In this document: piece after piece, positions 1,330 through 30,705 of the stretch
How the letters are laid out: each line of letters begins with the position of its first letter
Numbering within the stretch: the stretch's first letter is position 1
From: Elsinoe ampelina
Taxonomy: Eukaryota
Length of the DNA: 64,000 bases
Assembly: GCA_010093995.1 (NCBI GenBank)
Contig: ML992517.1
Span: 324,677 to 388,676, forward strand
Direction of reading: 5' to 3'
Made by a program: the position numbers and the translations under genes
The notes under the pieces: model-generated
The model's database searches: none
The model's input: only the letters and a program-made list of their open reading frames with translations
What the model was told of the DNA's origin: nothing

Positions 1330-3700
1330 AGTAATTAGCACTCCGCGAGTTAGACCTAGCTATAAGTCTAATTTAATACCCTTACTAGTTAAGATTACTT
1401 TAGGGTATAGGTAGATATAACTAATTCTAATTAGAAGAAAGTCGCGTACTCTAAACACCTAACTAAGCTATTATCTAACTTAAACTAACGCTAAATTACT
1501 ATAACGCATATAAGATAACTATCTATCCCTCTTATAGTATATATTATTCCGGCCTGCCTTACTAACTCTCTTATACCTATATATCTCTTTATTAGAACTA
1601 TTATAAACTAAGATATCTTAGGCACGTCGGCGCCTATATAGCTTAGACTATAAGACTAATAAGTATTCCGAAGATAATAATTTAAGTTATTTCGACTAGG
1701 ATAAAGCAGAGTAAAGCTTTAGCATTAAGGGAGACTAAGCTAACTATATAGGCTATAAATACAATATCGAAGATAAAGGAGAAGGTATAAATTAGACATT
1801 GCTACTCTCGATCCGAGTTTAAGGGAGCTATAACCCGACAAGAATAGCCTAACGTTAGCCTCTACGCTAGTTAAGATAGTAAAGTAGAGGCAATAGAATA
1901 TACTAAACTAGTATCTCGACATTTTTGAGGTAGTATATAATAATCTACGTATAAGTATAGCTATTAGAGTAGATTATAATACAATGTTACTAATATTAGA
2001 CGATTAATAGCTACTCCTACGAATTATATAGTACTAGTGCTCGGTCCGTAACTAGCTACTAGTACTTTATCTATAGAGGACTATAGGCAAATACCCTTCT
2101 ATAGTTATAGCTAGTAAGGTAGGTTACGTAGCTAAAGCTAATTACTTATTAATATACATATAGCTCCGAGAGGCGCTCTACTATAGTTATAATAATATTA
2201 TACGAATAGTAAGTAAGATACTCTACTACGAATAGCTAGCTAAAGAGCTAGAGGATAGTAAGCTACTAAATTAGGCACGTAGGCTACTAGAGGAAAGAAA
2301 GTACTAATACAAGGACAGCGATTTAGTACGCGCTAGATATACTTATTAATTAATTACTTATATATAGTAGCGTAAACGCTTTAGGAGTTCTTTAATATAT
2401 AAAGCCTTCCGAGCAGCCTTTATTAGACATATAGGCTTAGCTATAATAGCTAGCACTTGCTATTACTTTAATAAACTAATACTCTTTTTTATTTTCTCTC
2501 TCCTAGTAACGATTTATATACTCTTAGTTAAGTAAGTAAATAGGGTCAAGTTCTACTTACCTAAGGGAATACTAGTATTTAAACATATAGAACCTTTAGA
2601 ACTTAATTATGTCTAACTAAGCATTTAGAATAACTTTCTAGCGTAGATTAGCCTAAGATAGGTTCTTATCCTTTGTTAGCTAAAACTTAGCTTCGCTAAG
2701 TGCGTTAAGAGGAATAGACTTACTATCGTAATAGTAGTATTAAATATATCTCTTTACGCTAATACTATAGAGAGACTATTAGATAGAGAAGATACAAGGG
2801 AAAGGTGTATATATACCTTCTCGTTTTAGTTCGGCCTACCTAACTTTAAACTAACTTATAGAGAAGTTAGGTATATAATAACAGGCCTAATAGCGGGGGT
2901 AATAGCTATTATATAGCACTAGTATAAAATGCTTCTACCAAGCACCTTTTAAGAGGTAAGCTTAATTCTTCTATTAGCTTCTTAAGTTTAATACTAATAG
3001 ATCGAGAAGAGCGTCTAATTAAGGCTAAATGCTCTATTATAGCGTATTAAGGTACTACTTAGTTCGCGTATAGGAGCGAAGTACTAAATCGCTCTATAGC
3101 AACTCCTATAACAGAAGTATAGCTAGCGTAGATACCTAACATAGACAGTAACCTTGTCGTGACTTTAACTACTACTAAACTAAGTTAGGTTGTAGTTAGT
3201 ATATACAAGGATTAATAGACTTAATAGCGACATTTACCCGGGCTACTTAATTATACACGTGCTATACTGTCCTAAGATAGACAACTTAATAGCGATTTAC
3301 TAGCGGTTAAGGCGTAGTAGAAGGATTTCTTAGGTACATAGACGTAGATAAACTTTTTGTCCTTTACACGTAAGAAGTTTAGAGGCCTACTACGTAAACT
3401 AGTCTTGTAGTACCGAATCGGCCTAAAGTATAGTAGTAGTATCTTAGACATTAAGGAGGATAGACATCCGCTAGATAGAGATACTTTTATAGAACTAAGG
3501 GATAAGGATATAGAATTATAAGAAGATAGTATATATATCGTTATTAAGAGTAGCGTTAGGTAGAACATAAAGTAATATATATATTCTAGCGACCTTGTAT
3601 AATTTTCTAGACGTAGTAGACGAATTATAAGGTCTATATAATATATAGACATATATAATATATACTACAAAGTAAGCTACGTAATAGAATATTTCTATAA
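1330..3700 (+). pseudogene. RIP-inactivated RecQ/SF2-like helicase ORF of a mobile element
   Basis: Stop-riddled translation keeps TIVIVV(L/P)NISL at ~2722 (motif Ia-like) and Y*RLRRSRR at 3298-3324, which de-RIPs to YQRxGRGGR (motif VI-like); boundaries approximate. Confidence 0.5.
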
Positions 3701-3999
3701 TTAATATTATTAAGCTTATAGAGTAGACACGAACTAATTACTTCGCGAACTAAGAAACGCTTAAACTAAGATAAGAGATATACGTAGTGCGCTATCTACT
3801 ATTAGGCCGTCTTTATTTGCTACGCATTAGAGGTTTTTAGATTTCTGCGGGGAAAAACTATATTACTTCTAAGCAGGACCTAGGGGTGACTAGGGAATTA
3901 CATTGAACTAAGTTAAACTAAGTTAGTTACTTAGAAGTAGTCTAATATAGCTCCCTAGCGTTAGGGATTTTGTAACGTAAGTATATAAGAGAACTTATA

Positions 4000-6635
4000 T
4001 ATTAACTAAGTACTATAGGAGACTAGCTTAAACTTCTCCTAATTTAGCTTAAAGTCTAACCTAAGAGCTAGTAGTTAATATAGTCTAGCTCGTCCTAACT
4101 TAGTAGCTAAACTAGAACTTAGTTTACGAGTTAAACTAGAACTAAACTAGTTCTAAACTAGAGTAGGAGCTCTACTAAGCTAGATTTCTAGATCTAAGCC
4201 TAGCTTAGATCTAGATCTTAGCCTTTTAATTAGCTATAGTAGCTTCTATTTAATAATAACTAGTAAAAGCTCTTCTTTATAAGTAACTTAGCTATACTTA
4301 TAATCGATAGTAGTCTTATTAGCCTTAAGCTAGCCGAGGCTAAGAATAATATTAAATTAGCTAATATCTATAATATAGAAGGTAGTAAGAGCGTTTAGCT
4401 TACTAGAAATAGTAGTAGTAAGAGAGATACTATATATAACTTATTCTATTAAAATACTATTATAAGCTTAAAGCTAAATAGAGCTAGCTAACGCTATAGA
4501 GTAGCTAAAACTCTTTAGCTTATTAAGGATATTATAATTAACTATAGCGCCGATAAGTATACTAGTATTAATAAAGACTTAGAGTATAATAGTATAAGAG
4601 TAGTTATAGAGATTATAGATTATAATAGGAGTTATAATAGTAAGGATATAATAGCTAATAACGCTATTTATTAACTATATACCTCCTCTAGATCTATCTT
4701 AAATTACTCTTATTCTACTAGAGAATAAGACTTATTCTTTAGCTACTTATTTCTCTAGCTAGATAGGCTAGTAGACTTATAATCTATTTTAAGGTCGAAC
4801 TAGAAGTAAACTAGATCTAGTTTATAAGCTAAACTAGTATTAACTTAGTTACTTAACTTAGCTAAGTAATTCTAGAGCTACTATATCTCCTTAATAGTAC
4901 TAATATATATAGAGTATATAGTAGTATAAGTAGCCTTCTCTAAGGCGCTAGCTATATACTTAGTAGAGATATAGCTAGGCTTACTATATATGTAATAGAT
5001 AAGTATCTAAGTTAGATAGAAAGGCTATAGAGCGCCTCTAGTAATAGAGTAGAAGGTAGCTAGAGTAATAGGTATAGAGGTAGAATAAGCTATATAAGTT
5101 AGTATAGTAGTAGTATAGCTTATAGCTAGTATAGAGCGTAAGGCTTAAGTATACTTAGTAATAAAGTTACTTTATTAAATGTTATAGTTAGTAGTATAGG
5201 CCTTTATAATAAAGGTAAAGAGGCTATTAGTATTAAAATTAATAAGGGTAGTACGTAACTTACTAAATATCTTCTAGTAAAGCTAGTAGAGCTATTTATT
5301 ATTAGTAATCTTAGCGCAAAGAGCGTACTTATTAAACTTACTAATAAAGAAGTTAAAGAGAGTATTACGCTAAAAGAGACTAGTAAACTAAGTATATACT
5401 ATAGCCTTATAGTTAGGGTTCTTAAAGCGTTAAGCTAGAAGAGTAAGAACCTTATTAACACTAATAATATTATTACTAGTAGTATCTATAATAAGAGTAT
5501 AGACTTCTCTAGTAAGGTAGAAGTATAAGTAGGTAAACTTAGTAGCCTTAGTTAGATAGTAGTCTAAGTTAGTATATATCTTATTCTTTATCTAGTACTT
5601 AAAGACCTTAAACTACTCTAGAGTACTACTACTAAATATAGTAGAGTCTAGTATCTTTTCTAATAAGGCTAGGCTATATAATAAGAGAGCTAGTATACTA
5701 CGTTCTATTTTAGCTCTTAGTTAGGCTAGTTCGGCTCTAAGTTTAGCATTATTAGTAATCTAATAGGTAGACTAAGTAGTAACGTTATTAGTAATACTAT
5801 TAGTAGTATCTAGTTTAAGTAGAGTATTATCTAACTAGTTATATAGATTAAGAGCGTTAGTATATATAGAGTTACGTATAGTAATCTATTTATTATAAGT
5901 AGATTTAATAAAAGTAAAAGCTTTACATAGAATAGTTATACTATCTATCTCTTATAGCCTCTTCTTAAGGTTAGTATTACTAAGGTAGATAAGGTTGTAA
6001 TAGGCTAACTAGACTAACTTATTATTATTAATAGAGAGTAGAGAGATCTTACTTACGTAGTAGTCGTCGCTATTACTAGAGTTAGAACGAGCTATACTTA
6101 GTAAGGTTAGTTATAGAAGAAATAGTATAAAAAGTTAATACGTAATAAAGGAGATATTAAAAATTCTAGCTAGTAGCCTACTTCCTTTAAGAGTTATCTA
6201 TAACCTAACTTATTACCTTCTTCTTATCTTTATAGTATTAACCTATATAGTAATAGCAAGGATCTATTATAGTATATATAGGAACTATAGTTATAATAGC
6301 TTCTTCTTTAATTCTTTAGTTCTTTATAGATAGTAGTTATTAGTAGTTACGCGAGTAGTAGAATAACTAGATAGTTTAATAGCTCTATTACTTAGTCGTA
6401 GTTATATAAAGTCTCGATATAGTAATCTTAACTAGTAAGATAAGAAGTTAATTATATCTATTTATTAAGATATTAAGACTTAGAAGAAGAAGAAGAAAGC
6501 TAGTATATAAAGTATATATAATATTAAGAGTAGAGTAGCTAGAAGTCTAGGCTATAATACTAAGATTATATAACTAATCTAAACTAGATCCTAACTAAAT
6601 CTAGTTCGTATCTAGTTTATATCTATCTTATATTA
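4000..6635 (-). mobile_element. RIP-degenerate copia-like LTR retrotransposon remnant with probable 5' LTR at 6430-6635
   Basis: Minus-strand relic motifs resembling LWHxRLGH (~5560-5600) and LRVFG..YV (LHIYS/GKPS/GY ~4970-5010); adjacent 206-bp segment recurs at 17765-17962. Confidence 0.45.
6430..6635. repeat. LTR-like dispersed repeat, copy 1
   Basis: aactagtaagataagaagttaattat...ctatcttatatta aligns along its length with 17765-17962 in direct orientation. Confidence 0.85.
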
Positions 6636-7626
6636 ATAGTAAGAATATTATAATTCTACTTCTATTTTATTAAAGTAGTAAGCTAACTACTATATATATA
6701 ATCTATAAGTAGTATTTACTCTCTAGGCTTATAACCTATTAAGTAGAAAGGCTCTTATAGAGTAGTATATTATATAGAACTAAGGTCTATACTTATTAAA
6801 CAATAGAAGACTTAATTATTAACTAAGGTTAGTTAGTTCTATCTACTAGAAATAATAGCTATATACTCTATAGCCTTAGTATTATATAACTTATAGTTAT
6901 ATAATTCTACTATAGTATCTATTAAGCTATTATTATAGACTAAGAAGTAAGTTACTAAACTTATTATTATTATTATAAAGATATTAAGAATATAGATAGT
7001 ATTATATTATTTATAATTCTATTAATAAACTATTCTTATATAAATATAATATTATACTATAGAAGCTATTATAGACTATAGATATATATACTATATATAT
7101 TACTATATCTTTAAAACTTCTATAGAAGCTAGAACTACTTTTAATATATATAACTCTATATAAGTAAAACTTAATATACTCTTAACTATAAATTAAACAT
7201 TCTCTAGTAGTAATTACTAATATTATAGTATAGAGTACTTCTTATTATTAAGTAGATATACTTAAGTCTTATTACTATTATTATATTAAAGTAGCTAGTC
7301 TAGTATATTATAAGTACTTAATTACTATATTAGTTATCTATAATACTATCTATATATTCTAATACCTCTTTATAATAATAGCTATAAGTTAGATAATCTA
7401 TATCTTAGCCTATAATAGTAGTATAGAGTAATAGATAGTATTCTTCTATAATTAATAACTATAATTAATCTACTATAGTAATTATATATAATAATTATTA
7501 ATAATTACTAATTATCTACTCTATACTCTTAGTAACTTACTAAGTAAACTATTCTAACTTATAATCTATCTCTAAACTACTATAGAGTAAACTATCTCTA
7601 CTTTACCTTTATATAGTTTACTAAGA

Positions 7627-7700
7627 GAGTAGAGTAGATTAGAGGTATAGTAAAGTAGGTTACTATAACTCTAATCTACTCTACTCTACTAACTACTCTA
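7627..7700. mobile_element. hAT-like terminus with subterminal hairpin
   Basis: Inverted arms gagtagagtagattagag (7627-7644) / ctctaatctactctactc (7669-7686); end ctactaactactcta is the reverse complement of tagagtagttagtag, the left TIR of the hAT at 32276. Confidence 0.55.
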
Positions 7701-8230
7701 CTTAACTCTCTAGTCTAAGGCGAAGTCTAGAGCTTTATTAAGAAGAATTAGTCTAAGATCTATAAGAAACTAAGTAGTAATATAGTAGTACTAGATTAAT
7801 ATCTTAGAATAAGCCTAATAAAGTATATAAGCTTAGAGATTAAGAAGAATATTAAGAACTATTTTAAGGACAAGGATTAGAAGAGTTTCGATAGAGAGTT
7901 AAGTATAGTATTAGATACGATTAAGAGGCTAGTAGAGTATAGGAAGCGAGATAGTAGAGTAATTAAGGAGTAGCTAGACGTAAGGGGATATAAGTAGATA
8001 GTAGTAAGTAGCATCTCTACGACAACGCAGCTAGGCTAAGTATTAATAATATTCTATTTAGAATAGCACATGCTCCTTGTGACGAGGTCATTCACCCTTG
8101 GCAAGGATAGAGCGGTCAATGAGACTGATTGGAATACTTGCTGTATAGTATACTAGAACCCCGTCCCTCATATCCGCAGTGATCTATGCGACCGCCAAGC
8201 TGACTCTGTGTTATCTCTGCCCTCCAGCCA

Positions 8231-9025
8231 TCACTTGTAAGCCCAAGCTAGATCGTCTTCCTTCTCAGCATCTCCACCTTCCTCGTTGCCACTCTGCGCC
8301 GGGCGTGCAGGACGTTTGTACTTCCCGCTCTTGTTCCTTCCCTTCCTACCCTTTCTCCCCTTCTTCTTCTGAGGCTCAGTCTTGCTGTCATCTTCGGCTT
8401 GGCGTTTGGGCTGGAAGATCTTACCACCGTCGTCCTTGTTGATCCCAGAGGTACTGTCTGCAGTGTCCTTCGCTTTCTGACGCTCTGGCTGGTCAGATGT
8501 GCTGCCCTCAGGCTGGCCGGGAATGCGACTGTCGGGCTGGTCGGATTTGCTGCTTTTGGGCTGGTCGGAGTCGTGACTGTCGATGCTGGGAGGGTCCGCT
8601 GCAATCGGACCAGAAGCCAGCTTTGCCTCTTCATCCTCCAGCTGCTTCTTGACCTTCTCCACCTCATGGGTAATCTTGGTGCAGAGATCGGCATCACCTG
8701 GCTCGGAGGAGGAGATCCGCATTCGAGCTGTAAGATGACCCAACAGAACCAGCATATCTCTGATGATTTGATTCTTGACGGTGACTTGCTCCTGCAGCTG
8801 GCGCCTGTATTTGGCTCGGTCCTCCTCGCGCGCATGCTGGGCGGACTGGCGCTCGATACCCCATTGCTGCATTGCCGCGCCGTGCTCTGCGTCGTACGTA
8901 CGTTTCAACGACAGAACTTCCTGCTTGTAAATACCCCTCATCAATGCACTATCTCGATTGTGCTGCTGTGCCTGTGTTGCCAGCCTCTCTTCGAGCGCGG
9001 CCAATTTCTGCTCCATTTCCTCCAT
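8231..9025 (-). CDS. Hypothetical 264-aa coiled-coil protein with acidic/basic low-complexity tail
   Basis: Open frame from MEEMEQKLAALEERL; heptad-rich N-half, KKKGRKGRKGRNK basic tail; upstream in-frame extension to 9262 looks non-coding. Confidence 0.6.
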   Translation of the reverse strand: MEEMEQKLAALEERLATQAQQHNRDSALMRGIYKQEVLSLKRTYDAEHGAAMQQWGIERQSAQHAREEDRAKYRRQLQEQVTVKNQIIRDMLVLLGHLTARMRISSSEPGDADLCTKITHEVEKVKKQLEDEEAKLASGPIAADPPSIDSHDSDQPKSSKSDQPDSRIPGQPEGSTSDQPERQKAKDTADSTSGINKDDGGKIFQPKRQAEDDSKTEPQKKKGRKGRKGRNKSGKYKRPARPAQSGNEEGGDAEKEDDLAWAYK

Positions 9026-10660
9026 GCTATCGGAATTTGGTGATGTGGGACGGCGTGAAAGGTAATACAAGCTTGGATAAAAGTGAAGCGAAGGGTAAAG
9101 GTGAATAAAGAGGGATGTGATGACAAAGTAAGAGAGTAGGGTGCTGCGGAGTGTACAGCAAAAGAAAAGCGCCACCCGATTGGTTGGAAGACAGACGGCT
9201 CGGTAAGTTGCAGGCCACAAAGTTGGGTCAAACGCCACATTAGACAAGCATCGTATGACCAAACGAACAGATCAGCATGAGCATAGCCTGCGAGGAGAAA
9301 ACAACAGTTCCGAAGCTCTCGCTGCAGGGGACATGTGCCGTCCAGCCTGGCAGGTATCATAATGCTTGCAGGCTGACGTATTCCGGCATGGAATGCCAGA
9401 CAGATGGTACGCTTGAGAGGCATAAACGCGGGCATAGTACTGCATTAGCGCTAAGCGCTCGTTTGGCGCGAGATTGGATCTTGCTGCGTTATTTGTCATC
9501 TACCCACATCACTGAGACCTTTGTAGTACCATCGGAGGCAGGAAGCCCGCGTAAAGCGCTAACAGAGCGAGGTCGGATGTTCTTCTTGTCCAAGCGTGTC
9601 GTTGCAGCGGTCTTGGACGACAAAACATGAAGTCGGAGATATACTGAAGCCGGTGAAGCTCACTGAGCTAGCCGCATTGGGAGAACGTCAGTGCTTCCCG
9701 CTCTCACCTCCATCCGCTGTCTGGGCAATCTTTGTCGCCAACATCGTTCTAGTTGTACCTCCAGCGAGATGATCCGTCGCTCGGTCACTGGTAGAGTGAC
9801 GCGGAACTCTACTCTATCATGCTGTTTTCATTTGTGCAGCGGAAGATGCTGTCTCCCACCCACTCACGAACATGCGTGGCACACAACACTCATGCACCTC
9901 CGATACCACCCATGACGTTCGACATGCATCTCGTTTGTCCTGTCTGAGCTGCAGGCCATCGCTCGTGCCTATTGGATGTCGTCTAGGAGCTGAAAGGCCC
10001 ATTGCCAGGTTCATGCATGGTTGTCTATCAACGTCACTCGCTTGAAAACGATTACTGACCGCCTCGATGCTAGGGCCAGAACGGGGTTACTGACTTGTAC
10101 GATCGTCGTAGGATAATCGGTCGTGAGAACGACATGGTCCCATTGATGTGTCTCTCTGAGGCTGAACATCTCCCATTAATGCCGTGAGAACTTGAGTCCT
10201 TCGTGTTGAGCTTCGATGATTCACTGCAAATAGAACAACTGTGAGTGGAGATTATCTTTTTGCCTCTGTTTCGCGGTCGCCGGTTTCACGATTGTCACTG
10301 GCTCCGCCACCGCGGTTCAAGGTGCTTAGCGCCAGTGCACGCTCCCGCCCGTCCTAGCTGGCGGAGCTTTCGTGAATGGGACATGTACTTCTACCCTTCA
10401 CCCGCCTCTCGAACGTGGTTTTCCATCGTCATCCGCTCCACGATCCCACACGCCTCGCTATCACACAAAGCCGTACAATCTCAAATCGTCTCCTGGCCAC
10501 CTTTCACCATCTCAGTGCTCTCAATTGACCTTTCCATCAGAGCTCTTAACTTATCGAGCTGTCTGACGACTGTCACACTGCTCCTCCACGGCGTTGCCAG
10601 CTTCTTCCAAGCAACGGCGACACTACCTCCACTCCGAAGCACAACTGCAGCACCGCCGCC

Positions 10661-13600
10661 ATGGCCGATCCGCCTCCTGACGATGGAAATCCATCCGGTC
10701 CGGGCGCCGCCGCCAATGGCGAAGAAGGTGGCGCAGGACTGAACGAAACCGTGCAGCTGCTGCAAAGAGTGCAGCAAGACATCGCCAAGTTGGGTCAGAG
10801 TGGCATTTTCCAGCTACTTTCACCACTGGCCACACCACCGCAACCTACCCCACCACAGCCCACACCGCAGCCGGTCACCCAACAAGACGAGTCATCCAAG
10901 AGGAGAATCTCATCCAAAAAAGACAAGACAGCCTCCACCGACACAAAGAAACAGAAGATAGGACAGAACCAGGGGCAGAGTCGTGAACAGCTGCAGGGCA
11001 GATCATACCTACCACATTCTTCGCCGACGCCCGGAGCTGACAAAGGCACTTCCTCATCCTCCGGTTCTGGTAGTACTGTCTCACTGCCAGAAAGAATGAA
11101 GAAGGAGATCAAGACACCGGTCCGTCCAAGGAAGCTCGCAGAACCCCGGACCCCACTCATGCGAAGTACCGCCAGCCTTCCTGTCAGAAGTGTGGGAGGT
11201 CGATACATCAAGCACCCCTCCCAGAACCCCGACGCAGTGTACACACAGCCATACACCCTCCGCCAGCCATTCCCTGAGGTCGAGGCTGATAGACTTACCC
11301 GCAAGAGCCCCTACCACATCGACCAGCCATTCGCCGACGTCGCTGATGGGGCAGGGTCTTCCTTTGAGCCTGGCCTGCAGCAGCAAGGGCAAGCCAGGCA
11401 GTTGGCCAGCGCTGAGCCTTATATGGAGCATGGGGCAGAGCGTATCTCACAGGCGCAGACAGTGCCAGCGGGACTCCAGCAGACTGAGCCAGCAGGACAA
11501 CCAGGCATCAGCTCCACGGTCAACGCTGCAGGGGTGCACTCGTCTTCGCACACGATGCTGCGAAGACTTGAGCCAATCGCTGAGCTTCCCACCTCCGTCG
11601 GCGCTTCACAAAGCGTACCAGGTTCGATGTACGGCCCTTCAGCGTTCAGACAACAGCCTCGATGGTCGTGGCAGCATGGCCGGTTTGTCACTCCTCAGCA
11701 GGGCCAAAGCTATTATCAGACTTCTGATCCCAGCATGAGATGGACTCCCACTCCAAGCATGCCCGTTGATCCCCCCTATCCGTACCGATACACAAGCTCG
11801 CCAGGACCACAGCAAGCTCCCGGATACTTCCCGGCTGCCCAGCAGGAAGATGTCTTTCAAGTGCATCCTCAGGACAACATTCAGCAGGCACCTGTCGCCA
11901 ATATGTCAGGTGACCAAGATCTTCACTCCCCGAGAGTTCAGTTCTCTACCGGACCTGACCTGGTCGATCCCTTGAATCTTGGTCGTGATTGGCAGGCTTC
12001 CGACATCCCGATGCTCACCGAAGAACAGCAACGCTTGTTGGATGGGATGACCCCGATACCATTTGACAGCTTCGACGACCACGAGACCGCTTATGGCCAA
12101 GCTGCCCAAATGGATGGGATCATGTCTTCAACAGAAGATCGTCCGGCCTCGCCTAAGAACTTTGCGCCTCCCTCACCTGGACATGACTCTGAGGACGACC
12201 TTTTCATGAAGCCTTACACTCCCGAACCTGACCAGGAGTGGCTGCCCGCCATCAAATCTGCGTCAGCCCCGCCGTCGCCTGGAGCGGCTTCTGATACAGA
12301 GGCGGCAGTCGCCCAACAGGCACCACGCCGAAGGGGTCGACCGAGATTGTCCACTGAGAACAAGTTACGTGTGAAGAAGTACGTGGAGGAAGAGGTGAAT
12401 GTCCCAAGACCTCCAACTCCTGTGGTTGGAGAGGACACCATCGATCAGGAGAAAGAGTGGCCGTACCTCAAGGCGAAGGCGGAGTACAACCTGTCTGATT
12501 TCACTAAGCCTTCCGAGAAGCAGTTCGCCAGATTGATCCTTCGCATCATCGATCGTGCCGAACGCGACTCAGATATGGCAAACAAGCAAGCGGCCGACGA
12601 TCCAGCGACAACTCGAGACCGATCTACCACCGACGTAGCTGCAACAACGGTGATCGATGAGAACACACCAGAGATCAAGCAAAAGGTGACAGCGGCGACT
12701 TTCCTGTACCCTGCATTCGATCATGGTACCCGGAAGACCCGGTGTATTGACTTGATCCGACTGTCGCCGGAGATCTGGCTCCATGACACGTCCATCGAAG
12801 CTTTGGTCAGCCCAATGGCACATCACCAGTCAGACGTCTATTTCATTACTTCGGGCGAGCTAGTCTGGATGTTACCAGACCCACTGCAATACGAAACCAC
12901 CGACGATTGGCGAGAAGGGCTGCTGAAGCAAGTCAAAGAGTACACGGATACTTGGCTGACGTCCACCGGCTTGATCAAAAGGCGACTGACCATCGGTCCC
13001 CTCGTCACCAAAGTTGTGGCAGTCTATAACCATGATGGGTCACATTGGACGACCATCGTCGTTGATCTGGTGAACGGTACTGTGACTGAACTGGATTCCC
13101 TCGATTCGAAGAGGAGAAAGAACAATGCGGAATTCGTTCTGTCGAATTTCGCAGAGTACATCGCCCTCCGAGCCGGCCGCCCGCGCGCTGCCCGATTCTG
13201 GCGAACTTCTTACGATTCTTCAAGCCGTCAGGCGAACTCCTGCGATTGCGGTGCTTTCACAGCACTTCATGCTCGAGAGATCATGCTTGGCCTTCCGATC
13301 AGCAAGCCCGGTCTGGAGCATCTCCCGCCTGGGATGGATGAAGGAGTGACAAGATTCGAAGACTTGAGCCGCGAAGCTAAGACACTGGCGAGGCACAACT
13401 ACGGCCTTCAAGTAAGATGGGATCTCCTACGCACCCAAGCTCGTCTAATCCTTGGCGACTTGCCGGACGAAGTCCTTGAGCTGGACAGGCAAGTTGGACC
13501 TCATACGACATTCACGATCCGCCGAACTGTGGACGAAGATAGTACAAGCGACGAGGAGGAAGTGGATGAGAAGCATTTCGACACCACAGAGCAGCTCTTG

Positions 13601-16600
13601 AAGGAAGCACCGCTGTCCAAGGGTGCGCTAGCCCAAGAAGCCTTTGGGTACCGTGCGCTGCTATTCGAGACCCTACGCGGTGCCGGACCACGTGGTATGA
13701 CGGTACGAAGGGTGACAGAGCAGGTGGCAGCGAAATTACGAGCATCTGGAGTCGAAGCTCGAAGTACGTTGAATGAAGACCTCGACTTCCTCTTGCGTCA
13801 GGCTCCATTGTACTTCGCCTTTGAGTTTCCCGATTCGCAAGACTCACAGAATGGATCGTCACCGCGCAGTGATGTAGATGAGCGCCACTGGTCTATTGTC
13901 GGCGGACCAGGAAGGGATCTGTCGACTGAATATTGTCGCCAACTTCTGCGACCCATCTCGCAGGATCCAGCGTGGTCCCTACCCGAGATCCAAGATGGGC
14001 GTCACTCGCGTACTCTTATTCTGGTCATTCAACGACATAGCGGAGCGATTTCCACAGGAGCTATTGATCGAGTCGAGACCGATGCTCAACGCCATGCTTT
14101 CGCCTTCTCGCAGTCCTTTAGCCAGAAGCCAAGTCTCCCAAAACCTTACACTGAGCATGAGGGTCTTGACAACCGGTATCTATCGATGTGTCTACCTCGG
14201 ATCCAAGGTACGACGGACCTGCGAGATATGATCAGATCCAGACCGTCCATTCTGAAAGCGATCACTCGGTACAACCAGAAGGCTAGAGATGGACAGTCAT
14301 TGGTCATCTTCCTCCACTCCGGTCTTGATGGAGGTAGTGTCAACAACGAATCGTACGCTACTATTCTGGAAGAATATCGAAATATCCACTTTCTCCAGGC
14401 AATCAGCATCTACTCCGAGCGGCCTGGTTCAAATGAAAGCCAAAACTTCCGCACGTTGACCGATTCTTTACTGAGCTACTTCCGACCCGCCTGCTTTCAC
14501 GCACCGCACAGCCTACAGCCCCATAATCACGTCCTTTGGGCTGTGTATGAAGTCGCTCTTCTGGCGCATCTTCATCCTCTCAATCATCCCAGCCAATCCC
14601 AGGATGGAGCATTTTCCATTGACGAAGTCACAATCGATGAGGCAGTACAAGCAGACATGATTCTTGCACACAAGCAACTATTGCTGTTGAACACGCTACA
14701 ATACTTTTGGAGACTTGATCGCCGGCTGCCAAAAGCGCAGAAGTATATGGACGACCAGACGGTACTTGGCAGGAGCGCAGGAACTTCCTACGGAGTATAC
14801 TCATCTGACAAAGGTCGAACCACCAACGACCTGAGCTTATGCTTGCTTCCTGGAGCAACTCACACCATGAGCAGATCTTGCCGTTACTGCGACGAGACCA
14901 CTACCATCAAAGATTGGCACCGCAGCTTCCACACACCACCAAATTATCTTGAGCTGCCTATCATTGGCTTTCATTGCGACCGGCCTACATGTGTAGACAA
15001 GGAACACCGTCTCAGAAGGATCTTGACTGTCCCAAATGGTCCGTCCCTCGGCAAATTGGGTATGCCACCTCCGGTGATGATGTTACGCGAACGACGACTG
15101 GCTTCTTTACGGGTGGATACACGTTCGAATGACTACGGTCCGATCTCGTCGCTATTTTCGAATCTCACCTTCCCGCTGGTCCCTCAGGTCCCAAGATGCA
15201 GGTATACTGTAGCCGGCACGGTGGAAGGGATGGACCTCATCATCGATCAAATCTGTCATGATGCTGACGCTCGATTCTTTGTGCCCGGTCTATTCTCCTC
15301 CGAGACCAATCTCACTGATCTGGAACATCTGATAGAGTTCTTCATCCATCACGGGCTGGACTTCACTATCAAGCAGTTCATCGCTGCAATGGACCTTCAT
15401 CGCCGTCGACACAAACGCCGGGAGAGAGATTCAAACGATGCAGGGAAGGATGACGAGAACCTCGACTCGGGGTCTGAAAGCGATGATGAAGACGGCGATG
15501 ATGACATGGGCAATCCACCAGCGGCGCGGACAGTCTTTCCTCTCAGTGCCGAGCGCGAAGAGCATTGCAAACAGATGATCTCGTACGGTTTCACATATCA
15601 ACAGATTAAGACATTGATACCCGACTGTCCCACAGTCGCACGACACGACTGGTTCAAGCGCCAGCTGGCCACGACGTTGACTTTTGTCGACGAGAACCTT
15701 TGGACGGACACCGATGAGCAGACTGCTAGGACGATGATAGTGGACAGGAAGGCTGACGATCGTACAGTCGCAGCTGCTCTGGGTCGTACACGGGTCAGTG
15801 TCAGTGAGAAGCGCCGCTCCTGGGGCCTGCGTCCCAACCGGCCGCCGCTCAAACATGGTGTGATTGCTGCTGCTGATCAGCATCGTGCGGATTATGGGCG
15901 CGTATGGGCAAAGTACACTGATGTGCAGAAGGACATCATCAGCTCTGAGTTCAAGCGTGGTACATCTGATGAGAAGATTGCAGAAATGCTTGGTCGGAAG
16001 GAAAGAAGCATAAAAGAGCAACGGGCTACAATGGGGCTTTTCCGTGTCCCCGGCGCTGCCAAAGATCATGGGTGGTCAAGTCCGGATCGAAAGGTGGTCA
16101 TCGACGGTTTCAAGAAGGGGCTGAAGGACCCAGAGATCGCTAAGCTTCTGTCAGGCCACGGAGTCCCTGACATCCGGAAGTTGATCTTTGAACATTTCCC
16201 GGAGGAAGAGGTCAGACGCAACGCCTCGACTCGTCCCTGGACGACCACTGAGGATGATTTGATCATCAAGCGGAAAGGAGATGGGAAAATGTGGAAAGAT
16301 ATTGCCGAAGAGCTCGGCCGTTCTGTAGGATCTTGCAAGAGCCACTGGCGGCAACTACGACGTACACAGGAGCAAAGGGATGCCAGAAACAGGGCCCGCG
16401 TCCGACCATCATCAAAGAGGGACACTGGCCCGGAAGATACAGCTGCTACGACCGCAGAAGATGTGATCGTGGTGAATGTGGCAGGCACATTGGCGGTGGC
16501 TAGCAGTGGCGATGGCGCTAGACCACCTCCTGTCGTCACTAGCAATGAGCAGACGACCACTTTGGCGACTGAGAGTCCGGTCACGTCGACCGACGCAGAC

Positions 16601-16987
16601 GGAAGGGAGCAGCCGAGCACAGGTGCAATTGTACCACCTCGGAGGATACAGCTGCTACAGCCGCAGCAGTGGCGACGGCGCAATGAGCAGACGACCACTT
16701 TGGCGACTGAGGGTCCGGTCACGTCGACCGACGCAGACGGAAGGGAGCAGCCGAGCACAGGTGCAATTGTACCACCTCGGAGGATACAGCTGCTACAGCC
16801 GCAGCAGTGGCAACGGCGCAATGAGCAGACGACCACTTTGGCGACTGAGAGTCCGGTTACGTCGACCGACGCAGACGGAAGGGATCAGCCGAGCACAGGT
16901 GCAATTGTACCACCTCGGAGGCGTTCGCTCAGGGGGCAGACGAGCTTGAGTCACGTCATGGAAGAAGGCAGCGATCAAGATGAATAG
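10661..16987 (+). CDS. 2108-aa multidomain protein: AT-hook, Ulp1/C48 peptidase, wHTH-like, resolvase-like, GATA-like Zn finger, Myb/SANT repeats
   Basis: Uninterrupted 6.3-kb ORF; RRRGRPR (12323-12346); WLHD..IE, HW (13043), ELDSL (13088), QANSCDCGAF (Cys 13247) = C48 triad; CRYC..W..CDRPTC (14879-14992); WTTTEDDLI..WKDIAEELGRSVGSCKSHW (16238-16348) plus similar upstream repeats. Confidence 0.85.
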   Translation: MADPPPDDGNPSGPGAAANGEEGGAGLNETVQLLQRVQQDIAKLGQSGIFQLLSPLATPPQPTPPQPTPQPVTQQDESSKRRISSKKDKTASTDTKKQKIGQNQGQSREQLQGRSYLPHSSPTPGADKGTSSSSGSGSTVSLPERMKKEIKTPVRPRKLAEPRTPLMRSTASLPVRSVGGRYIKHPSQNPDAVYTQPYTLRQPFPEVEADRLTRKSPYHIDQPFADVADGAGSSFEPGLQQQGQARQLASAEPYMEHGAERISQAQTVPAGLQQTEPAGQPGISSTVNAAGVHSSSHTMLRRLEPIAELPTSVGASQSVPGSMYGPSAFRQQPRWSWQHGRFVTPQQGQSYYQTSDPSMRWTPTPSMPVDPPYPYRYTSSPGPQQAPGYFPAAQQEDVFQVHPQDNIQQAPVANMSGDQDLHSPRVQFSTGPDLVDPLNLGRDWQASDIPMLTEEQQRLLDGMTPIPFDSFDDHETAYGQAAQMDGIMSSTEDRPASPKNFAPPSPGHDSEDDLFMKPYTPEPDQEWLPAIKSASAPPSPGAASDTEAAVAQQAPRRRGRPRLSTENKLRVKKYVEEEVNVPRPPTPVVGEDTIDQEKEWPYLKAKAEYNLSDFTKPSEKQFARLILRIIDRAERDSDMANKQAADDPATTRDRSTTDVAATTVIDENTPEIKQKVTAATFLYPAFDHGTRKTRCIDLIRLSPEIWLHDTSIEALVSPMAHHQSDVYFITSGELVWMLPDPLQYETTDDWREGLLKQVKEYTDTWLTSTGLIKRRLTIGPLVTKVVAVYNHDGSHWTTIVVDLVNGTVTELDSLDSKRRKNNAEFVLSNFAEYIALRAGRPRAARFWRTSYDSSSRQANSCDCGAFTALHAREIMLGLPISKPGLEHLPPGMDEGVTRFEDLSREAKTLARHNYGLQVRWDLLRTQARLILGDLPDEVLELDRQVGPHTTFTIRRTVDEDSTSDEEEVDEKHFDTTEQLLKEAPLSKGALAQEAFGYRALLFETLRGAGPRGMTVRRVTEQVAAKLRASGVEARSTLNEDLDFLLRQAPLYFAFEFPDSQDSQNGSSPRSDVDERHWSIVGGPGRDLSTEYCRQLLRPISQDPAWSLPEIQDGRHSRTLILVIQRHSGAISTGAIDRVETDAQRHAFAFSQSFSQKPSLPKPYTEHEGLDNRYLSMCLPRIQGTTDLRDMIRSRPSILKAITRYNQKARDGQSLVIFLHSGLDGGSVNNESYATILEEYRNIHFLQAISIYSERPGSNESQNFRTLTDSLLSYFRPACFHAPHSLQPHNHVLWAVYEVALLAHLHPLNHPSQSQDGAFSIDEVTIDEAVQADMILAHKQLLLLNTLQYFWRLDRRLPKAQKYMDDQTVLGRSAGTSYGVYSSDKGRTTNDLSLCLLPGATHTMSRSCRYCDETTTIKDWHRSFHTPPNYLELPIIGFHCDRPTCVDKEHRLRRILTVPNGPSLGKLGMPPPVMMLRERRLASLRVDTRSNDYGPISSLFSNLTFPLVPQVPRCRYTVAGTVEGMDLIIDQICHDADARFFVPGLFSSETNLTDLEHLIEFFIHHGLDFTIKQFIAAMDLHRRRHKRRERDSNDAGKDDENLDSGSESDDEDGDDDMGNPPAARTVFPLSAEREEHCKQMISYGFTYQQIKTLIPDCPTVARHDWFKRQLATTLTFVDENLWTDTDEQTARTMIVDRKADDRTVAAALGRTRVSVSEKRRSWGLRPNRPPLKHGVIAAADQHRADYGRVWAKYTDVQKDIISSEFKRGTSDEKIAEMLGRKERSIKEQRATMGLFRVPGAAKDHGWSSPDRKVVIDGFKKGLKDPEIAKLLSGHGVPDIRKLIFEHFPEEEVRRNASTRPWTTTEDDLIIKRKGDGKMWKDIAEELGRSVGSCKSHWRQLRRTQEQRDARNRARVRPSSKRDTGPEDTAATTAEDVIVVNVAGTLAVASSGDGARPPPVVTSNEQTTTLATESPVTSTDADGREQPSTGAIVPPRRIQLLQPQQWRRRNEQTTTLATEGPVTSTDADGREQPSTGAIVPPRRIQLLQPQQWQRRNEQTTTLATESPVTSTDADGRDQPSTGAIVPPRRRSLRGQTSLSHVMEEGSDQDE
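16542..16921 (+). repeat. In-frame tandem repeat, 138-bp (46-aa) unit, ~2.75 copies
   Basis: gcaatgagcagacgaccactttgg starts at 16542, 16680 and 16818. Confidence 0.95.
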
Positions 16988-17764
16988 TGAACTAGTCATT
17001 GGCGATGACGGAATCGAATCTGTAATATCAAGACTGCTTTTGCTCATACCATGGTTTTCCTGATTCTTCGCTCCAGCTAGTCATGTGACAAGTGATGGCC
17101 GTTGGTTTCGAGCTCTTGTGGCAGTGTTAGTAACCGGGATGCTTTGTCCTGTCATTCAAGACAAATATCATGAGCCTCATGGTCAGGCGACTGACGCTGG
17201 TTAGTCTGCGCATCAGGACCCGTCGCGCACAATAGATTCGAGTGTAGGCTACGAAAGTCACATGCAGCGTAGCGGGGCTGTCCAAATGCGAGGGTTCTAC
17301 TTGGCGGCGAATTTCAGACGACTGCTTCTGGCGCACGAGTGTCGTAGATGAGATTCAAGAGTGAGGCACAACTCATCAGGTGATATGTCTAAGTCTTCAG
17401 CGAGTCTCAAATCTATGCGCGATTGCTGGTAGTTCTGCACGGGCTCGAAACTATGACAGCTGACTTGAGTTACTCTTCGTAGTGGTGTCGCGAATATCTC
17501 TGCAGTACCCCGCCTTGCCTCGCAGAGCCGCACTGATATTCTCGCGGCCAAAATTACTGGGATTGCTTGGCGGACTTTTGGCTTGTTTACCACTCACCCA
17601 AAATTCGCCTCTAATACCCTCTGTAGTTATTATTTATCAAACCACGTGAATTGAAGCATTGATATCTATTAGTGTAGCCTTCTAAAGGTGTTTTTATAAT
17701 AGCTAAATCTTAAAATAGCTTAATTTTGCACTTACAAGTCTAAGATAAGGCTCTAGCTAATTAC

Positions 17765-17962
17765 AACTAGTAAGATAAGAAGTTAATTATGTCTATTTAT
17801 TAAGATATCGAGACTTAGAAAAGAAAGAAAGAAACTAAAGTACAAAGTATATATAATATTAAGAGTAGAGTACTAGCTAGAAGCCTAGGCTACAATATGA
17901 AGATTATATAACTAATCCAAACTAGGTCTAAACTAAATCTAGTTTAGATCTATCTCGTATTA
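17765..17962. repeat. LTR-like dispersed repeat, copy 2 (solo-LTR-like) inside a small RIP patch (~17620-18060)
   Basis: Direct-orientation match to 6430-6635 with transitions and small indels. Confidence 0.85.
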
Positions 17963-18350
17963 GAAAGCTAGCTATATAACTAGATATTAGTACTATAGCA
18001 CTAATAATAGTGTTACTAGCTCTAAATAGTAACTATGTAGTTAGTGTAATATACTGTCTATAGGGGAGCATAAATCACCTGATATATGCCCTTTATGCAA
18101 TTATCATACAAATTAGAACGAAAAGGCATCAGGCTCTCTAAACGAAATTCAAACGGTGCATGTTGATTGGGTGGGTCAAATGCCAAGGGTGGGAGTTGAC
18201 AATTGGGGGTGGCCTTCTCTCGTTCACATTACCTCACAAGTCAGGCTCACTTACCGAAATTCTGTCAAGTGCTCTGCCACCGTTGAACCTGACCTGTATC
18301 CTCAGACATAGCGAAACACACTCGAACCCCACCAGAACTGACTGCGCACC

Positions 18351-19223
<873 letters not shown>

Positions 19224-19596
19224 ACGCTGCAATCGTACGTTTCCAGTAAATGCTGCTTCTCGCCTTCTTCGGAGTTGGGAGTTCTACGCCAATCACCCTT
19301 TTCATGACTACGCGAATGACGCTGATGGAGATGATATCTGGTCAATGGAGGTAAACCCGGATGGTCAAGGTAGCCTTTGCAATCTGATTTTGACAACTAA
19401 TCTTCAAGTGCTTTACATCATTTGTTCACCCATCTTCATGCCCTGTACATCATGCCTCGCAGCTCCCACTCTTCTCCAATGTCTCGTCACATCTTGTACA
19501 TCATTCGTCGACCTCATCTACCGTCAACTCAACGCCTCGATTCTGCCATGAAACCCTATGTCAACATACATCCTCCAGATCATGGTCCGTGGAAGT

Positions 19597-20779
19597 CTAG
19601 AAGATTGCCTGTCCATTGACATGAGACGAAACACCGCCTATTAAACTGATCAGCTACATTCACCACACAAACCGAGATTCTTACCTGGCATATTCGCCGG
19701 CGCACTCGCAAAGAAGAAGAACCACCTATTATTCTTCTTACACGTCTCCGCCAGCTTCTCTAAATCCAGCATCTCCCCCAACGGCATCCCCCACATGGCG
19801 AGAATATACTCATGCAAGAAATACCCATGCTTACTCGGCCAGCACTCAAACGCAGGGGCATCTCCTCCTACCGCCGCGAAATAACAATCATGCAACCAAT
19901 CCAACACCTTCTCCTCCTGACTCACGCCCGAGAACGTATTCTTATTGTTCTCCCCTAACTCATGGTGTCTCTTCGCCAACGCATCCCGCTCATCAGGCTG
20001 CTTACTGTAATAGCTCTTCACCCACCCACTTCTCACGAACAACATATCCCCAATCTCGATGTCCCCTCCTTGACTCTTAGGCCGGATGTCAATCCCCTGG
20101 CTCTCCCCCACCTGCCGGAGTTCATCCCATGATATCTCCTCGTGGCCATACGCGTCGTACGCGCGCCCTTGCTTCTCCGCCCAGGAAGCAAAGTCGAGGA
20201 GGACGCCGCGGCCCGCGATGCCGTGGTTCGCCCAGTGGTGGATGCTGCATTTGTGGTTTGCTTTCTCACCCGTGATGTCTTCGCCTTTGGTGCCGTTGTA
20301 GAAGGTCTGGGTCGCGATGTGGGCGAAGTGGCGGAAGCCGTCCCATTGGGTGCCGCTTTGGGTGTTCATGGTGTAGAGGTCATCGTAGGCCACGCCGGGC
20401 ATGAGGGTTTTGATCTCATGCTTGAAGATCTCGCGCTCGAAGGCTGGGACGGAGGGGACGTTCAGGGGGAGGTTGACGGGGGCGATCTCGCCTGTGGAGA
20501 TGAGTTTGCTGGCTGCGGCGACGCGGGTGGGGGTGAGGAGGTTGAGACGGCCGAGCTGGGAGGGTTAGGAGGGAAACAGGGGGAGGGGCGGGGGAGACGC
20601 ACGCCGTCTTCAGATCCCCAGAACCAGGCGGCATCTTTGGGAGCTCCGGAGATGGAGGGGAGATCTTTACGGGAGGGGAAGGAGGTGTCGTCTGGGTTCC
20701 AGGTTGGTGCCATGCTGGGTCTTGATTCAAGCTGGTCGGTGATCAGATGGGTTCTTTGCTGGGCTCTGAAGTTGGCCAT
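19597..20779 (-). CDS. Putative cyclase / kynurenine formamidase-like metal-dependent hydrolase
   Basis: NTQSGTQWDGFRHF, GIAGRGVLLD, GDMLFVRSG, LHEYILAMWGMPLGEMLDLEKL; introns near 20550-20601 and 19640-19683; start could be 20713 or 20779. Confidence 0.85.
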
Positions 20780-27098: not shown

Positions 27099-28541
27099 AT
27101 GGAGCAGGTTTTGGCCAGGAACCCCGCCACCGTCCGAGAACGACCTCGTGAACGCCGCAACCTACGACGACCGGCTTGCGAGGCATGCAAGAAGAGCAAG
27201 GTATGTGTGACCCCCCTCAATACAAATGTACGTACTGCAGTCCGCTGACTACAGTGCTCTTAGCTTCGTTGTTTGGGCCCACAGTCACAGTGCGACAGAT
27301 GCTTGTCCCGCTCCATCCCGTGCATTTTCCCAGAGCCAATGCGAGCGAGATCTGGTCAAAACACGAATCGGAGCGCTAATGGGATGACAAGTGTTCAATC
27401 GGACTCGATAGTGAGCACGACCACATTCACTTCTCCATCCCAGACGCTGCAAACGCCAGTCGACACCGATTTCATACCGTCCAACTCTCTGCTCTCTTCT
27501 GACGACAATCCGAATGGTTTGAATGGAACCTTTGATTGTTTGTGACGTCTGATTTGTCCATTCCGAGATAATAGACTGACCTACATTAGTAGCATTTACG
27601 GATGAAGAGATGCGTTCTTTGACGGGCCAAGTATTCCCCGAAGCCGATCAAGACTGTACGTCGTTCAACGTCAGACAAAGGTTAGTGGCTGACGTGAGAT
27701 AGTTCTTGATGGTTTTGAGACCCAGGCTTTGGCCGATACGCCCATGGAATGGTTCAGTTCAGACAACCGCTCGCTCATGGACAGCACAGCATCGCACGAG
27801 TACCCGGTCCCAGACGTTTTCCTTCAGCAAAAGCAACGGCCCGGTCCTACTGCGCTGGAACAGCCATCGTTCGCTACTTCGGACGGCAACAGATCAAGCA
27901 TTTCTCAAGCCACAATAAGACATGATTCTGTGGGCTGCGACTGTATTACAAGTGCTCTTGGTGTCGTGCAACAGCTTGACGACGACCATTTCAAACTGTC
28001 CTCTCTTTCACTGGACCAAGTCATACAACTGCAAAAATGGATTCAAAAGTCAGCTGGAGCCTCTCTTAAGTGCGAATCGTGCAAGGATGACTCGAAAGTC
28101 CTCACCGTCGTCGTCATCGTCTGTGAGCGATTGACCGAGATGTTCGAGTGTATCCACCGCCGCATCGATCAAGCGACCCAAGAGACCCTCGGTGGCGATC
28201 CCAATCTTCCCAGGCTGGTCTCCATGTCGGATGAGCAGCTGTATCCTTCTTTGGGGACGAAAGAGGGATGCGATGTCCGCTGCAATACTGCTTTGTTCTC
28301 CATGGAGTTCCAAAAGATGTACTCGGGAGAGGAGCAGGTCCATATGATCAAAGTCCTGCTGCGGCTACAAATGAGGAACCTTCAGGCTCATCTGGTCACG
28401 TTGACGACAATCTACGACTCGAAAGCCAATGAAGCACGCCGACACAAGATATCCTCCCTGACAGCCCGTCTTTCGAGAGCTGCCTCTGCTATCGACAACT
28501 CGTTACAAAACTTGTTAGAGCATCAAAGAAATGAACGATAG
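27099..28541 (+). CDS. Zn(II)2Cys6 transcription factor, probable cluster regulator
   Basis: ACEACKKSK|intron|LRCLGPQSQCDRCLSRSIPC binuclear cluster; further introns ~27540-27700; C-terminal CDC..C..C region. Confidence 0.85.
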
Positions 28542-30563: not shown

Positions 30564-30705
30564 TGTTGTAACTGGCAAATCGGATCGAGAGACGTGTGTT
30601 TCATTCAGAGAGTTACAATAACCGATTTATCTACTATGCGTGCGCTGACTTATTAGTACTAGTTCTTTAGTACCAGAGAAGCTATACTAGCCTTCTATTA
30701 TAACA
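30564..30705 (-). repeat. 3' LTR of copia element
   Basis: tgttgtaactggc...ttataaca; 13 transitions versus the other LTR. Confidence 0.92.

Follow-up and report, generated by a model that had tools for sequence, protein, structure and literature searches.

Serine recombinases are essentially prokaryotic and viral enzymes. A stretch of DNA from Elsinoe ampelina raises the question of whether one of their catalytic domains resides in a fungal nuclear protein. This stretch, 64,000 nucleotides of contig ML992517.1 (assembly GCA_010093995.1, positions 324,677 to 388,676 of the forward strand), is called the window here, and positions are counted from its first letter. An initial annotation, made from the letters of the sequence, had found the ordered motifs of Tn3/gamma-delta-type resolvases at 14009..14410, inside a gene encoding a protein of 2108 residues that we call P0001, and had proposed a divergent eukaryotic branch of the serine recombinases, either with altered chemistry or catalytically dead and reused. 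The eukaryotic cases described in the cited passages of the literature are recognisable IS607-type genes (PMC2715888, PMC4058570).

We found that the flagged region is the core of a conserved, uncharacterised alpha/beta domain in a large fungal nuclear protease, and that this domain, for which Pfam has no model, is a new family. The reading that we favour, on predicted models and with a probability of no more than about 0.4, is that the domain has a resolvase fold and is plausibly an ancient, exapted serine recombinase that would no longer recombine DNA and would serve a SUMO protease directed to chromatin as a ligand-binding, DNA-binding or regulatory module.

Predicted fold of the domain

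Residues 1005-1480 of P0001 (476 residues) were modelled with AlphaFold on an alignment of 17 sequences, with a predicted local distance difference test score (pLDDT) of 72.6 and a predicted template modelling score (pTM) of 0.78. The model is made of a winged helix (model residues 1-77), an alpha/beta domain (111-300), a long helix (323-350) and a small element of strand and helix with the pattern CxxC...CDxxxC. A second model, m4efc01b5b0d6, restricted to the domain (residues 1109-1309 of P0001), reached a pLDDT of 83.8 and a pTM of 0.83. The domain is modelled as a three-layer alpha/beta sandwich, with its elements in the order beta1, long helix, beta2, helices, beta3, helix, beta4, helix, beta5, helix. 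Strand beta1 ends at Arg1125, a Ser follows two residues on, and the first helix begins five residues after this Ser. The same arrangement of strand end and helix start surrounds R8 and S10 of gamma-delta resolvase, in which these two residues stand at the end of beta1, and D67, R68 and R71 after beta3.

The domain-only model was compared with 48,161 chains using VIA-align, a structural scan that is independent of Foldseek, and the best 50 rows were considered. Twelve of the first 19 rows were serine-recombinase catalytic domains, with Z between 5.1 and 6.5 and root-mean-square deviations (rmsd) of 3.3-5.1 Å. They comprise the resolvase-family recombinase 3guv_A (Z 6.5, rmsd 3.8 Å, 117 residues aligned), Tn3 resolvase 5cy1_A (Z 6.0, 3.3 Å, 102 aligned, model residues 8-201 on residues 1-117), the serine integrase 9dxd_A (Z 5.8, 4.7 Å, 126 aligned), TP901-1 integrase 3bvp_B (Z 5.7, 4.5 Å, 116 aligned) and gamma-delta resolvase 2rsl_A (Z 5.5, 3.8 Å, 103 aligned), followed by 3lhk_A (Z 5.5), phiC31 4bqq_B (5.4), 3g13_B (5.4), 6dgb_B (5.3), TnpX 2mhc (5.2), 1hx7_A (5.2) and Bxb1 9iu2_A (5.1). 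Lower in the list were beta-carbonic anhydrases (Z 4.5-5.0), vWA domains and caspases (4.6-4.8).

A similar picture was obtained when the top 990 Foldseek chains were re-ranked: the TP901-1 catalytic domain came first (Z 6.4, 124 of 136 residues aligned), and recombinases took five of the first nine rows (TP901-1, 9dxd, Sin and two phiC31 chains). With the 476-residue model, integrase 9dxd_A (row 28) was the sole match among the best 50 rows that was not a winged-helix protein. Its residues 1-161 aligned weakly with model residues 101-358 (Z 5.2, rmsd 5.2, 156 aligned), including the long helix that follows the domain (residues 1327-1354 of P0001), as helix E does in serine recombinases.

The likeness of the fold to that of resolvases is weak, but SPECIFICALLY. 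These rankings are real evidence, at the level of predicted models, that the domain resembles the catalytic domain of resolvases more than it does other alpha/beta domains, although they fall short of proof of common descent. The fold check that the initial annotation had asked for thus returned an alpha/beta sandwich whose best look-alikes are serine-recombinase catalytic domains, but only at these middling scores and with nothing significant from Foldseek.

Conservation of the domain among its homologues

An exhaustive HMMER search with residues 1000-1580 of P0001 against 1.84 billion representatives returned 16 homologues at E<=1e-3, of which 14 had E<=1e-10 and the strongest 5e-51, in alignments spanning about 385 residues (75-460 of the query, roughly residues 1074-1460 of the protein). 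The named homologues belong to just three species, Aureobasidium melanogenum, A. pullulans and Elsinoe ampelina, each of them a Dothideomycete, and their annotation is either hypothetical or 'ubiquitin-like protease family profile domain-containing'. Since six of the 16 also match Peptidase_C48, a protease, a winged helix, the alpha/beta domain and a zinc ribbon form the core layout of the family. A word-filter search with residues 1040-1420, confined to proteins of 1159-3689 residues, gave no homologue; it must have overlooked relatives, because three of those found by the exhaustive search fall within that range of lengths.

In the family alignment the mean column identity is 19%, but 17 columns reach a conservation of 85% or more. 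All 16 homologues have Arg1125, and 15 of 16 have Ser1127. The loop that follows beta3 retains Gly1221 (15/17), Asp1223 (15/17), Gly1224 (16/17), Asn1228 (17/17), Asn1229 (16/17) and Ser1231 (16/17), and conservation near beta5 extends to Cys1278 (16/17), His1290 (16/16) and Trp1293 (16/17), with Ala1302 present in all 17 sequences. Near-invariant Arg, Ser, Asp, Asn-Asn, Ser, Cys and His residues at so low a mean identity make the domain unlike a decayed pseudo-domain. In the literature, supplements apart, we found no paper on this domain family and none relevant to a connection between Ulp1 proteases and serine recombinases, and the accession numbers of the named homologues are cited in no paper found.

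The strings on which the initial annotation was built all lie in the frame of a real gene (LILVIQRHS at 14015, PRIQGT at 14195, RPSILKAI at 14240, DGQSLVIF at 14288 and NIHF at 14381), the Arg at 14033 being Arg1125 and the putative nucleophile at 14039 being Ser1127. Their order follows that of the secondary structure (beta1 with R-x-S, beta2 and its loop, helix, beta3 with LDGG, helix, beta4), although the likeness of the sequences themselves is at chance level. Among the residues said to be kept, the Arg and Ser of R-x-S, for which a lack of conservation had been named beforehand as one of two refuting outcomes, and Asp1223 are indeed conserved, but the Arg of 'RP', Arg1194, is an Arg in only 1 of 17 sequences. 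PRIQGT, which had been equated with DxxSG, does lie in the loop after beta2, but only G/A (16/17) and T (13/17) recur in it. Both Arg of DRLxR had been described as replaced, and no Arg occurs at those columns in the 17 sequences. The proposed region is contained in the domain, of which it covers the first two thirds; the domain itself, of about 190 residues, extends to about 14575.

Evidence against membership in the serine recombinases

Several lines of evidence weigh against a relationship with the serine recombinases, beginning with sequence comparison. The Resolvase model PF00239, which as a positive control detects 19 places in five plasmids (E 5e-50 to 1e-17), gave no match at E<=10 in the whole of P0001 or in a 270-residue piece, and none at E<=1 in the 17 family sequences; at the same thresholds no caspase or other Pfam match was found over the alpha/beta domain. 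Against the PDB sequences, phmmer with the 270-residue piece found only a chemoreceptor (E 0.41), and the family profile had no match at E<=10. Profile comparison by hhalign with alignments of eight and 17 serine recombinases gave probabilities of 0.03-0.13% and E values of 0.44-0.97, with shallow profiles (effective number of sequences, Neff, 3.2-4.6) and without secondary-structure scoring. These alignments contained catalytic domains of Gin, of the TP901-1, phiC31 and Bxb1 integrases, and of plasmid resolvases and invertases, phiC31 being absent from the smaller one, in which MAFFT misplaced its N-terminus, and included in the larger. Since the Pfam, PDB and hhalign comparisons were all empty, the motif resemblance is statistically indistinguishable from chance, and judged by sequence the domain is not a resolvase.

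The catalytic signature points in the same direction. Mutation of Y6, R8, S10, D36, R68 or R71 greatly reduces cleavage and recombination by Tn3 resolvase, as Olorunniji & Stark (PMC2794168) report. Only R8 and S10 have equivalents in the family, namely Arg1125 at the end of beta1 and Ser1127 just after it, as matched by the order of the structural elements. The position two before the Arg, where Y6 would be expected, is I, V, L or M in 16 of 16; the loop after beta2 (L-P-x-V-x-[AG]-T) has no conserved acidic residue in the place of D36; and the beta3 loop (G-L-D-G-G-S-V-N-N-x-S) has no Arg in any of the 17 sequences that would correspond to R68 or R71. Because only the R8 and S10 equivalents are kept, DNA strand exchange by the canonical mechanism appears very unlikely, and membership in the serine recombinase family is not supported.

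The structural evidence has its own limits. None of the 48,161 chains matched at Z>=8, and lower VIA-align scores 'may mean only a common arrangement', in the words of the tool. Unrelated folds are interspersed among the recombinases, such as a ketoreductase (Z 5.9), a designed P-loop protein (5.7), CbiX (5.4) and PIWI (5.2). Foldseek found nothing at E<=1e-3 in the PDB with either model, its non-significant top rows being methyltransferases, DHFR and aminotransferases, and nothing at E<=1e-3 in BFVD, where rows 28, 40 and 45 were a Pin invertase and two Pithovirus resolvases (E 0.057-0.083, TM 0.16-0.34, or 0.28-0.34 when normalised to the query) and rows 17, 29 and 48 were labelled 'Integrase' with no type specified. 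Between beta4 and beta5 the model places a helix, where resolvases have a hairpin of these two strands. Both models were built from an alignment of only 17 sequences, and it is only from the order of the elements, not from residue-level superposition, that Ser1127 is equated with S10 and that the conserved residues are taken to cluster. The practical lesson is that a resemblance in motif order that is missed by hidden Markov models (HMMs) can coincide with a resemblance at the level of the fold, and that alone it is no proof of membership.

Architecture and transcription of the host gene

P0001 starts at the first ATG (10661) of a stop-free plus-strand frame that runs from 10550 to 16987. A Pfam scan recognises Peptidase_C48 and a Myb repeat in it, and no other family; the remaining features in Table 1 come from the sequence, the alignment and the models. 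The C48 domain belongs to the Ulp1/SENP proteases, with an HMM score above the cut-off and both motifs in place: His795 lies in HWTTIV and Cys863 in DCG (residues 862-864), and we take these to be the catalytic residues, as in Ulp1. The winged helix was matched in rows 1-27 by winged-helix proteins exclusively (histone H5/H1, Fox, Fur, cullin), and the cysteine pattern of the zinc-ribbon-like element is kept in most of the homologues that extend that far. Similar W-containing repeats are seen by eye upstream of the Myb repeat. The tandem copies at the C-terminus suggest a recent expansion; a 30-nt piece related to them occurs at 16431-16460.

Contigs from three public runs (X2-X4) are RNA-derived, because they splice out the GT..AG introns of the neighbouring Ras-family gene. 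Those covering parts of the P0001 open reading frame (ORF) have no internal joints, at a depth of 2-4 compared with 18-54 on the Ras-family neighbour, and those over 13780-14133 and 14177-14344, within the flagged region, have neither a joint nor a difference in sequence. The gene is therefore transcribed, at a low level, and the flagged region is exonic.

Table 1. Positions in the window of the P0001 gene and of the features of its product
Feature	Position	Strand	Basis and remarks
Probable 54-nt GT..AG intron in the 5' leader	10019..10072	+	Joint 10018/10073 in one X4 contig, depth 3.3, shorter side 28 letters; weak
P0001 ORF, 2108 codons plus stop, intronless	10661..16987	+	Gene containing the flagged region; homologues down to E 5e-51
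AT-hook-like basic motif RRRGRPR, residues 556-562	12326..12346	+	Position from sequence; presumably an AT hook
Ulp1/SENP cysteine protease domain, Peptidase_C48 PF02902, residues 790-880 matched	13028..13300	+	E 4.7e-08, 33.6 bits, cut-off 20.7
Winged-helix domain, residues 1005-1081	13673..13903	+	Structural matches, Z 5.2-6.1
Conserved alpha/beta domain, residues 1117-1305	14009..14575	+	Model m4efc01b5b0d6; contains the flagged region
Arg1125-His-Ser1127, C-terminal end of beta1	14033..14041	+	Alignment, model
G-L-D-G-G-S-V-N-N-E-S loop after beta3	14321..14353	+	Occupies the place of resolvase LDRLxR; both Arg absent
Conserved Cys1278, His1290 and Trp1293, before and in beta5	14492..14539	+	Alignment
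Long helix, residues 1327-1354, placed like helix E of serine recombinases	14639..14722	+	476-residue model (model residues 323-350)
Cys4 zinc-ribbon-like element, CxxC (residues 1407-1410) ... CDxxxC (1439-1444), then helix	14879..15028	+	Alignment, model
Myb/SANT-type DNA-binding repeat PF00249, residues 1858-1899	16232..16357	+	E 1.2e-06, 29.0 bits, cut-off 24.4
Three C-terminal tandem copies of 138 nt (46 residues) each	16542..16955	+	Repeat family D1; identity 100%, 99%, 82%

Alternative readings

A serious possibility, to be held tentatively, is an independent Rossmann-like domain unrelated to resolvases, that is, a new enzyme or ligand-binding module. Its conserved polar residues include some, such as Cys1278 (16/17) and His1290 (16/16), that have no counterpart in resolvases; Ser1127, Asp1223 and His1290 (or the pair Cys1278/His1290) could form, together with Asn-Asn, a hydrolase-type centre of nucleophile, base and oxyanion hole, a second activity beside the Ulp1 protease. 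This candidate centre is read from the conserved residues, and no esterase, SGNH or alpha/beta-hydrolase is found in the best 50 VIA-align rows, with a single thioesterase at Z 4.0 in the re-ranking. An SGNH-like centre, a metal site of MIDAS or Toprim type, or a Ser-Asp (DGG) dyad as in patatin would be conceivable too. The absence of any sequence or profile tie to a known family is consistent with such an independent domain, as are the middling Z scores, with many unrelated alpha/beta folds within one unit, and the modelled beta4-helix-beta5 unit, which is typical of generic parallel alpha/beta folds. Recombinases are nevertheless clearly enriched among the leading rows of both structural rankings (12 of the first 19 rows in VIA-align, 5 of the first 9 in the re-ranking), and R-x-S stands at the same topological place as R8/S10.

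We consider it unlikely that the domain is a degenerate peptidase fold of clan CD (caspase- or legumain-like), a pseudo-protease with its His/Cys dyad lost that sits beside an active Ulp1 protease. Like the clan CD peptidases (C14, C13), it is a three-layer alpha/beta sandwich with its first strands in the same order, and the hydrophobic strand and loop of small residues and Gly after beta3 resemble the caspase His-Gly block. Language-model features of the 270-residue piece, which tell against a resolvase origin as well, place Peptidase_C14 in 25 of the 30 nearest clusters (score 0.90, 132 of 256 features) and those of the domain, with C14 excluded, put Peptidase_C13 nearest (score 0.81). Such scores, however, are in the range of common chance matches, at 88-132 of 256 features where 170 are typical of true members, and Pfam gives no C14 or C13 match at E<=10. 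The structural matches are weak (7jl7_B, Z 4.8, and 1i3o_A, Z 4.6, in VIA-align; caspase-6 and MALT1, Z 3.7-4.0, in the re-ranking), and caspases rank below serine recombinases in both lists. Because neither a His after beta3 nor a Cys after beta4 is conserved, and because caspases score below recombinases, this is only a minor rival.

More improbable again is a recombinase or transposase that was captured by the gene of a fungal SUMO protease and still uses its Ser nucleophile, in which a pocket of Arg-x-Ser and Asn-Asn-x-Ser would form a covalent phosphoserine link to DNA or to another phosphodiester. If this were true, the arginine-poor active site would be unlike that of any known serine recombinase, and the cutting, joining or tethering of DNA would be coupled with desumoylation on chromatin.

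An active serine recombinase or transposase with altered chemistry, with a phosphoserine link through Ser1127 and the Asn pair replacing Arg68 and Arg71, in a gene that would then encode the transposase of a so far unrecognised mobile element of eukaryotes, is very improbable. The conserved Arg and Ser would be expected of such an enzyme, as would a resolvase-like fold followed by a long helix and a zinc ribbon, the layout of large serine integrases; the several DNA-binding modules of the protein, the long ORF, free of introns and bordering an AT-rich block, and the presence of several homologues on short assembly contigs could be read in the same way. But Y6, D36, R68 and R71 have no equivalent, and the conserved fusion with a Ulp1 protease has no known parallel among transposases. 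The gene is flanked by neither terminal inverted nor long direct repeats (7000-19000), and a second copy of it was not found in the window. A search of metagenome contigs with homologues P0011 and P0013 as queries found no related locus. On the repeat and copy checks made in the window, nothing supports an active mobile element. Several members of the homologue clusters P0014/P0019-P0021, P0011 and P0013 are located on 'partial' contigs of 4-10 kb, and some are present on as many as 10 different ones, which may be a sign of repeats or mobility or may result simply from fragmented assemblies and repeated sampling.

Finally, the absence of any domain, with a chance motif resemblance in a poorly structured part of a long protein, would suit the chance-level sequence statistics against resolvases but is hardly tenable, contradicted as it is by 16 homologues over about 385 residues (to E 5e-51), a confident domain model (pLDDT 83.8) and 17 columns at least 85% conserved against a mean identity of 19%.

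Neighbouring features of the window

The window is fungal in character, with gene blocks of normal GC content alternating with AT-rich blocks (1-8000 and about 30000-43000), and the neighbours of the P0001 gene encode a Ras-family GTPase, a HOOK protein, a non-ribosomal peptide synthetase (NRPS), Med6 and dehydrogenases. The AT-rich blocks have a GC content of 0.15-0.37, compared with 0.49-0.58 in the gene blocks, and resemble isochores affected by repeat-induced point mutation (RIP); runs of N occur at 38727-39517 and 41028-41657. About 2.6 kb separate the P0001 gene from the edge of the left AT-rich block. Between this block and the gene, a minus-strand frame of 346 codons (8231-9271) encodes a coiled-coil-like product rich in Lys, Gly and Ser; it matches no Pfam family at E<=1e-3 and is covered by no RNA contig of runs X2-X4.

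The Ras-family (Rab-like) GTPase gene (18240-19636, plus strand) is well expressed (depth 18-54), and its introns at 18884-18957 and 19036-19083 are shown by RNA. At its joint 18371/18493 all three runs have 12 extra letters between the two sides, which suggests a 12-nt micro-exon. The contigs over the GTPase gene also show a CT..AC joint at 19636-19684, which corresponds to a minus-strand GT..AG intron; the minus-strand cyclase-domain gene at 19650-20564 therefore converges on the GTPase gene and has been co-assembled with its transcript. Two adjoining long plus-strand frames at 49781-57408 encode a multi-module NRPS with repeated AMP-binding, PP-binding and Condensation domains, and are probably one gene split by an intron or a frameshift near 55100. 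The plus-strand frame at 27693-28541 has a sub-threshold match to AflR, the aflatoxin regulatory protein (E 1.4e-4, 22.3 bits against a cut-off of 24), and is possibly a Zn2Cys6 cluster regulator.

Discussion

Serine-recombinase catalytic domains (PF00239; Tn3/gamma-delta, TP901-1, phiC31, Bxb1) are the best structural look-alikes of the P0001 domain, with 100-126 residues aligned. The two share an Arg-x-Ser at the end of the first strand, a Leu-Asp after the third, a long helix after the domain, and a zinc ribbon and DNA-binding modules of helix-turn-helix type in the same protein. They differ in that the P0001 family has no sequence or profile similarity to these enzymes, lacks their Tyr6, Asp36, Arg68 and Arg71 and does not conserve the 'RP' Arg, while it possesses an extra invariant Asn-Asn-x-Ser, a Cys and a His; furthermore, its domain is about 60-90 residues longer, owing to the long first helix and the helix between beta4 and beta5, and sits midway in a eukaryotic protease of 2108 residues. 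The proposal of a divergent eukaryotic branch of serine recombinases is not demonstrated; that of a domain catalytically dead and reused agrees with the data as regards recombination, with weak support from the fold.

We know of no Ulp/SENP protein with a winged-helix, alpha/beta and zinc-ribbon module, although the C48 domain of the Ulp1/SENP SUMO proteases is common to P0001 and six of its 16 homologues. Among known systems, the nearest in layout is TnpA of IS607, in which a DNA-binding (winged) helix domain is also followed by a catalytic-type domain and helix E. According to the cited passages, IS607-family TnpA proteins are serine transposases whose copies have been horizontally transferred into yeast (PMC4058570, PMC6188088, PMC2715888), and are documented serine recombinases of eukaryotic genomes (PMC4058570, PMC2715888). 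IS607-type structures are found among the matches of our domain (3lhk_A, Z 5.5, described in the source passage as an IS607-family catalytic domain, PMC4058570; 6dgb_B, Z 5.3). The yeast copies, however, have 27-31% identity to bacterial ones and keep motifs A-C, as the passage cited states (PMC2715888), whereas the P0001 family is not recognisable by sequence. Its winged helix, moreover, was matched by histone H5, Fox and Fur types and by no named MerR type, and the window has no TnpB/Fanzor partner.

Our favoured explanation is that the domain would derive, by exaptation and strong divergence, from the catalytic domain of a serine recombinase or transposase, its order of winged helix, catalytic-like domain and long helix recalling that of IS607-type TnpA. 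It would have been stripped of the chemistry of DNA strand exchange, since it no longer has counterparts of Tyr6, Asp36, Arg68 and Arg71. The conserved residues of the beta1 and beta3 loops would form a single pocket at the usual position of the active site, which is likely because the two loops are adjacent in a 2-1-3-4 sheet, and this pocket would bind a phosphate-bearing ligand or a nucleic-acid backbone. Together with the winged helix, the zinc ribbon and the Myb repeats, the domain would position or regulate the SUMO protease on chromatin.

If descent from a recombinase is true, the catalytic domain of such an enzyme would have been exapted into a eukaryotic chromatin enzyme, with a new variant of its active site. 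Even with a convergent fold, this family of domains is unannotated and strongly conserved and is represented by just 16 clusters in 1.84 billion, and the candidate pocket beside a SUMO protease would be a concrete target for mutagenesis in Aureobasidium, which is genetically tractable.

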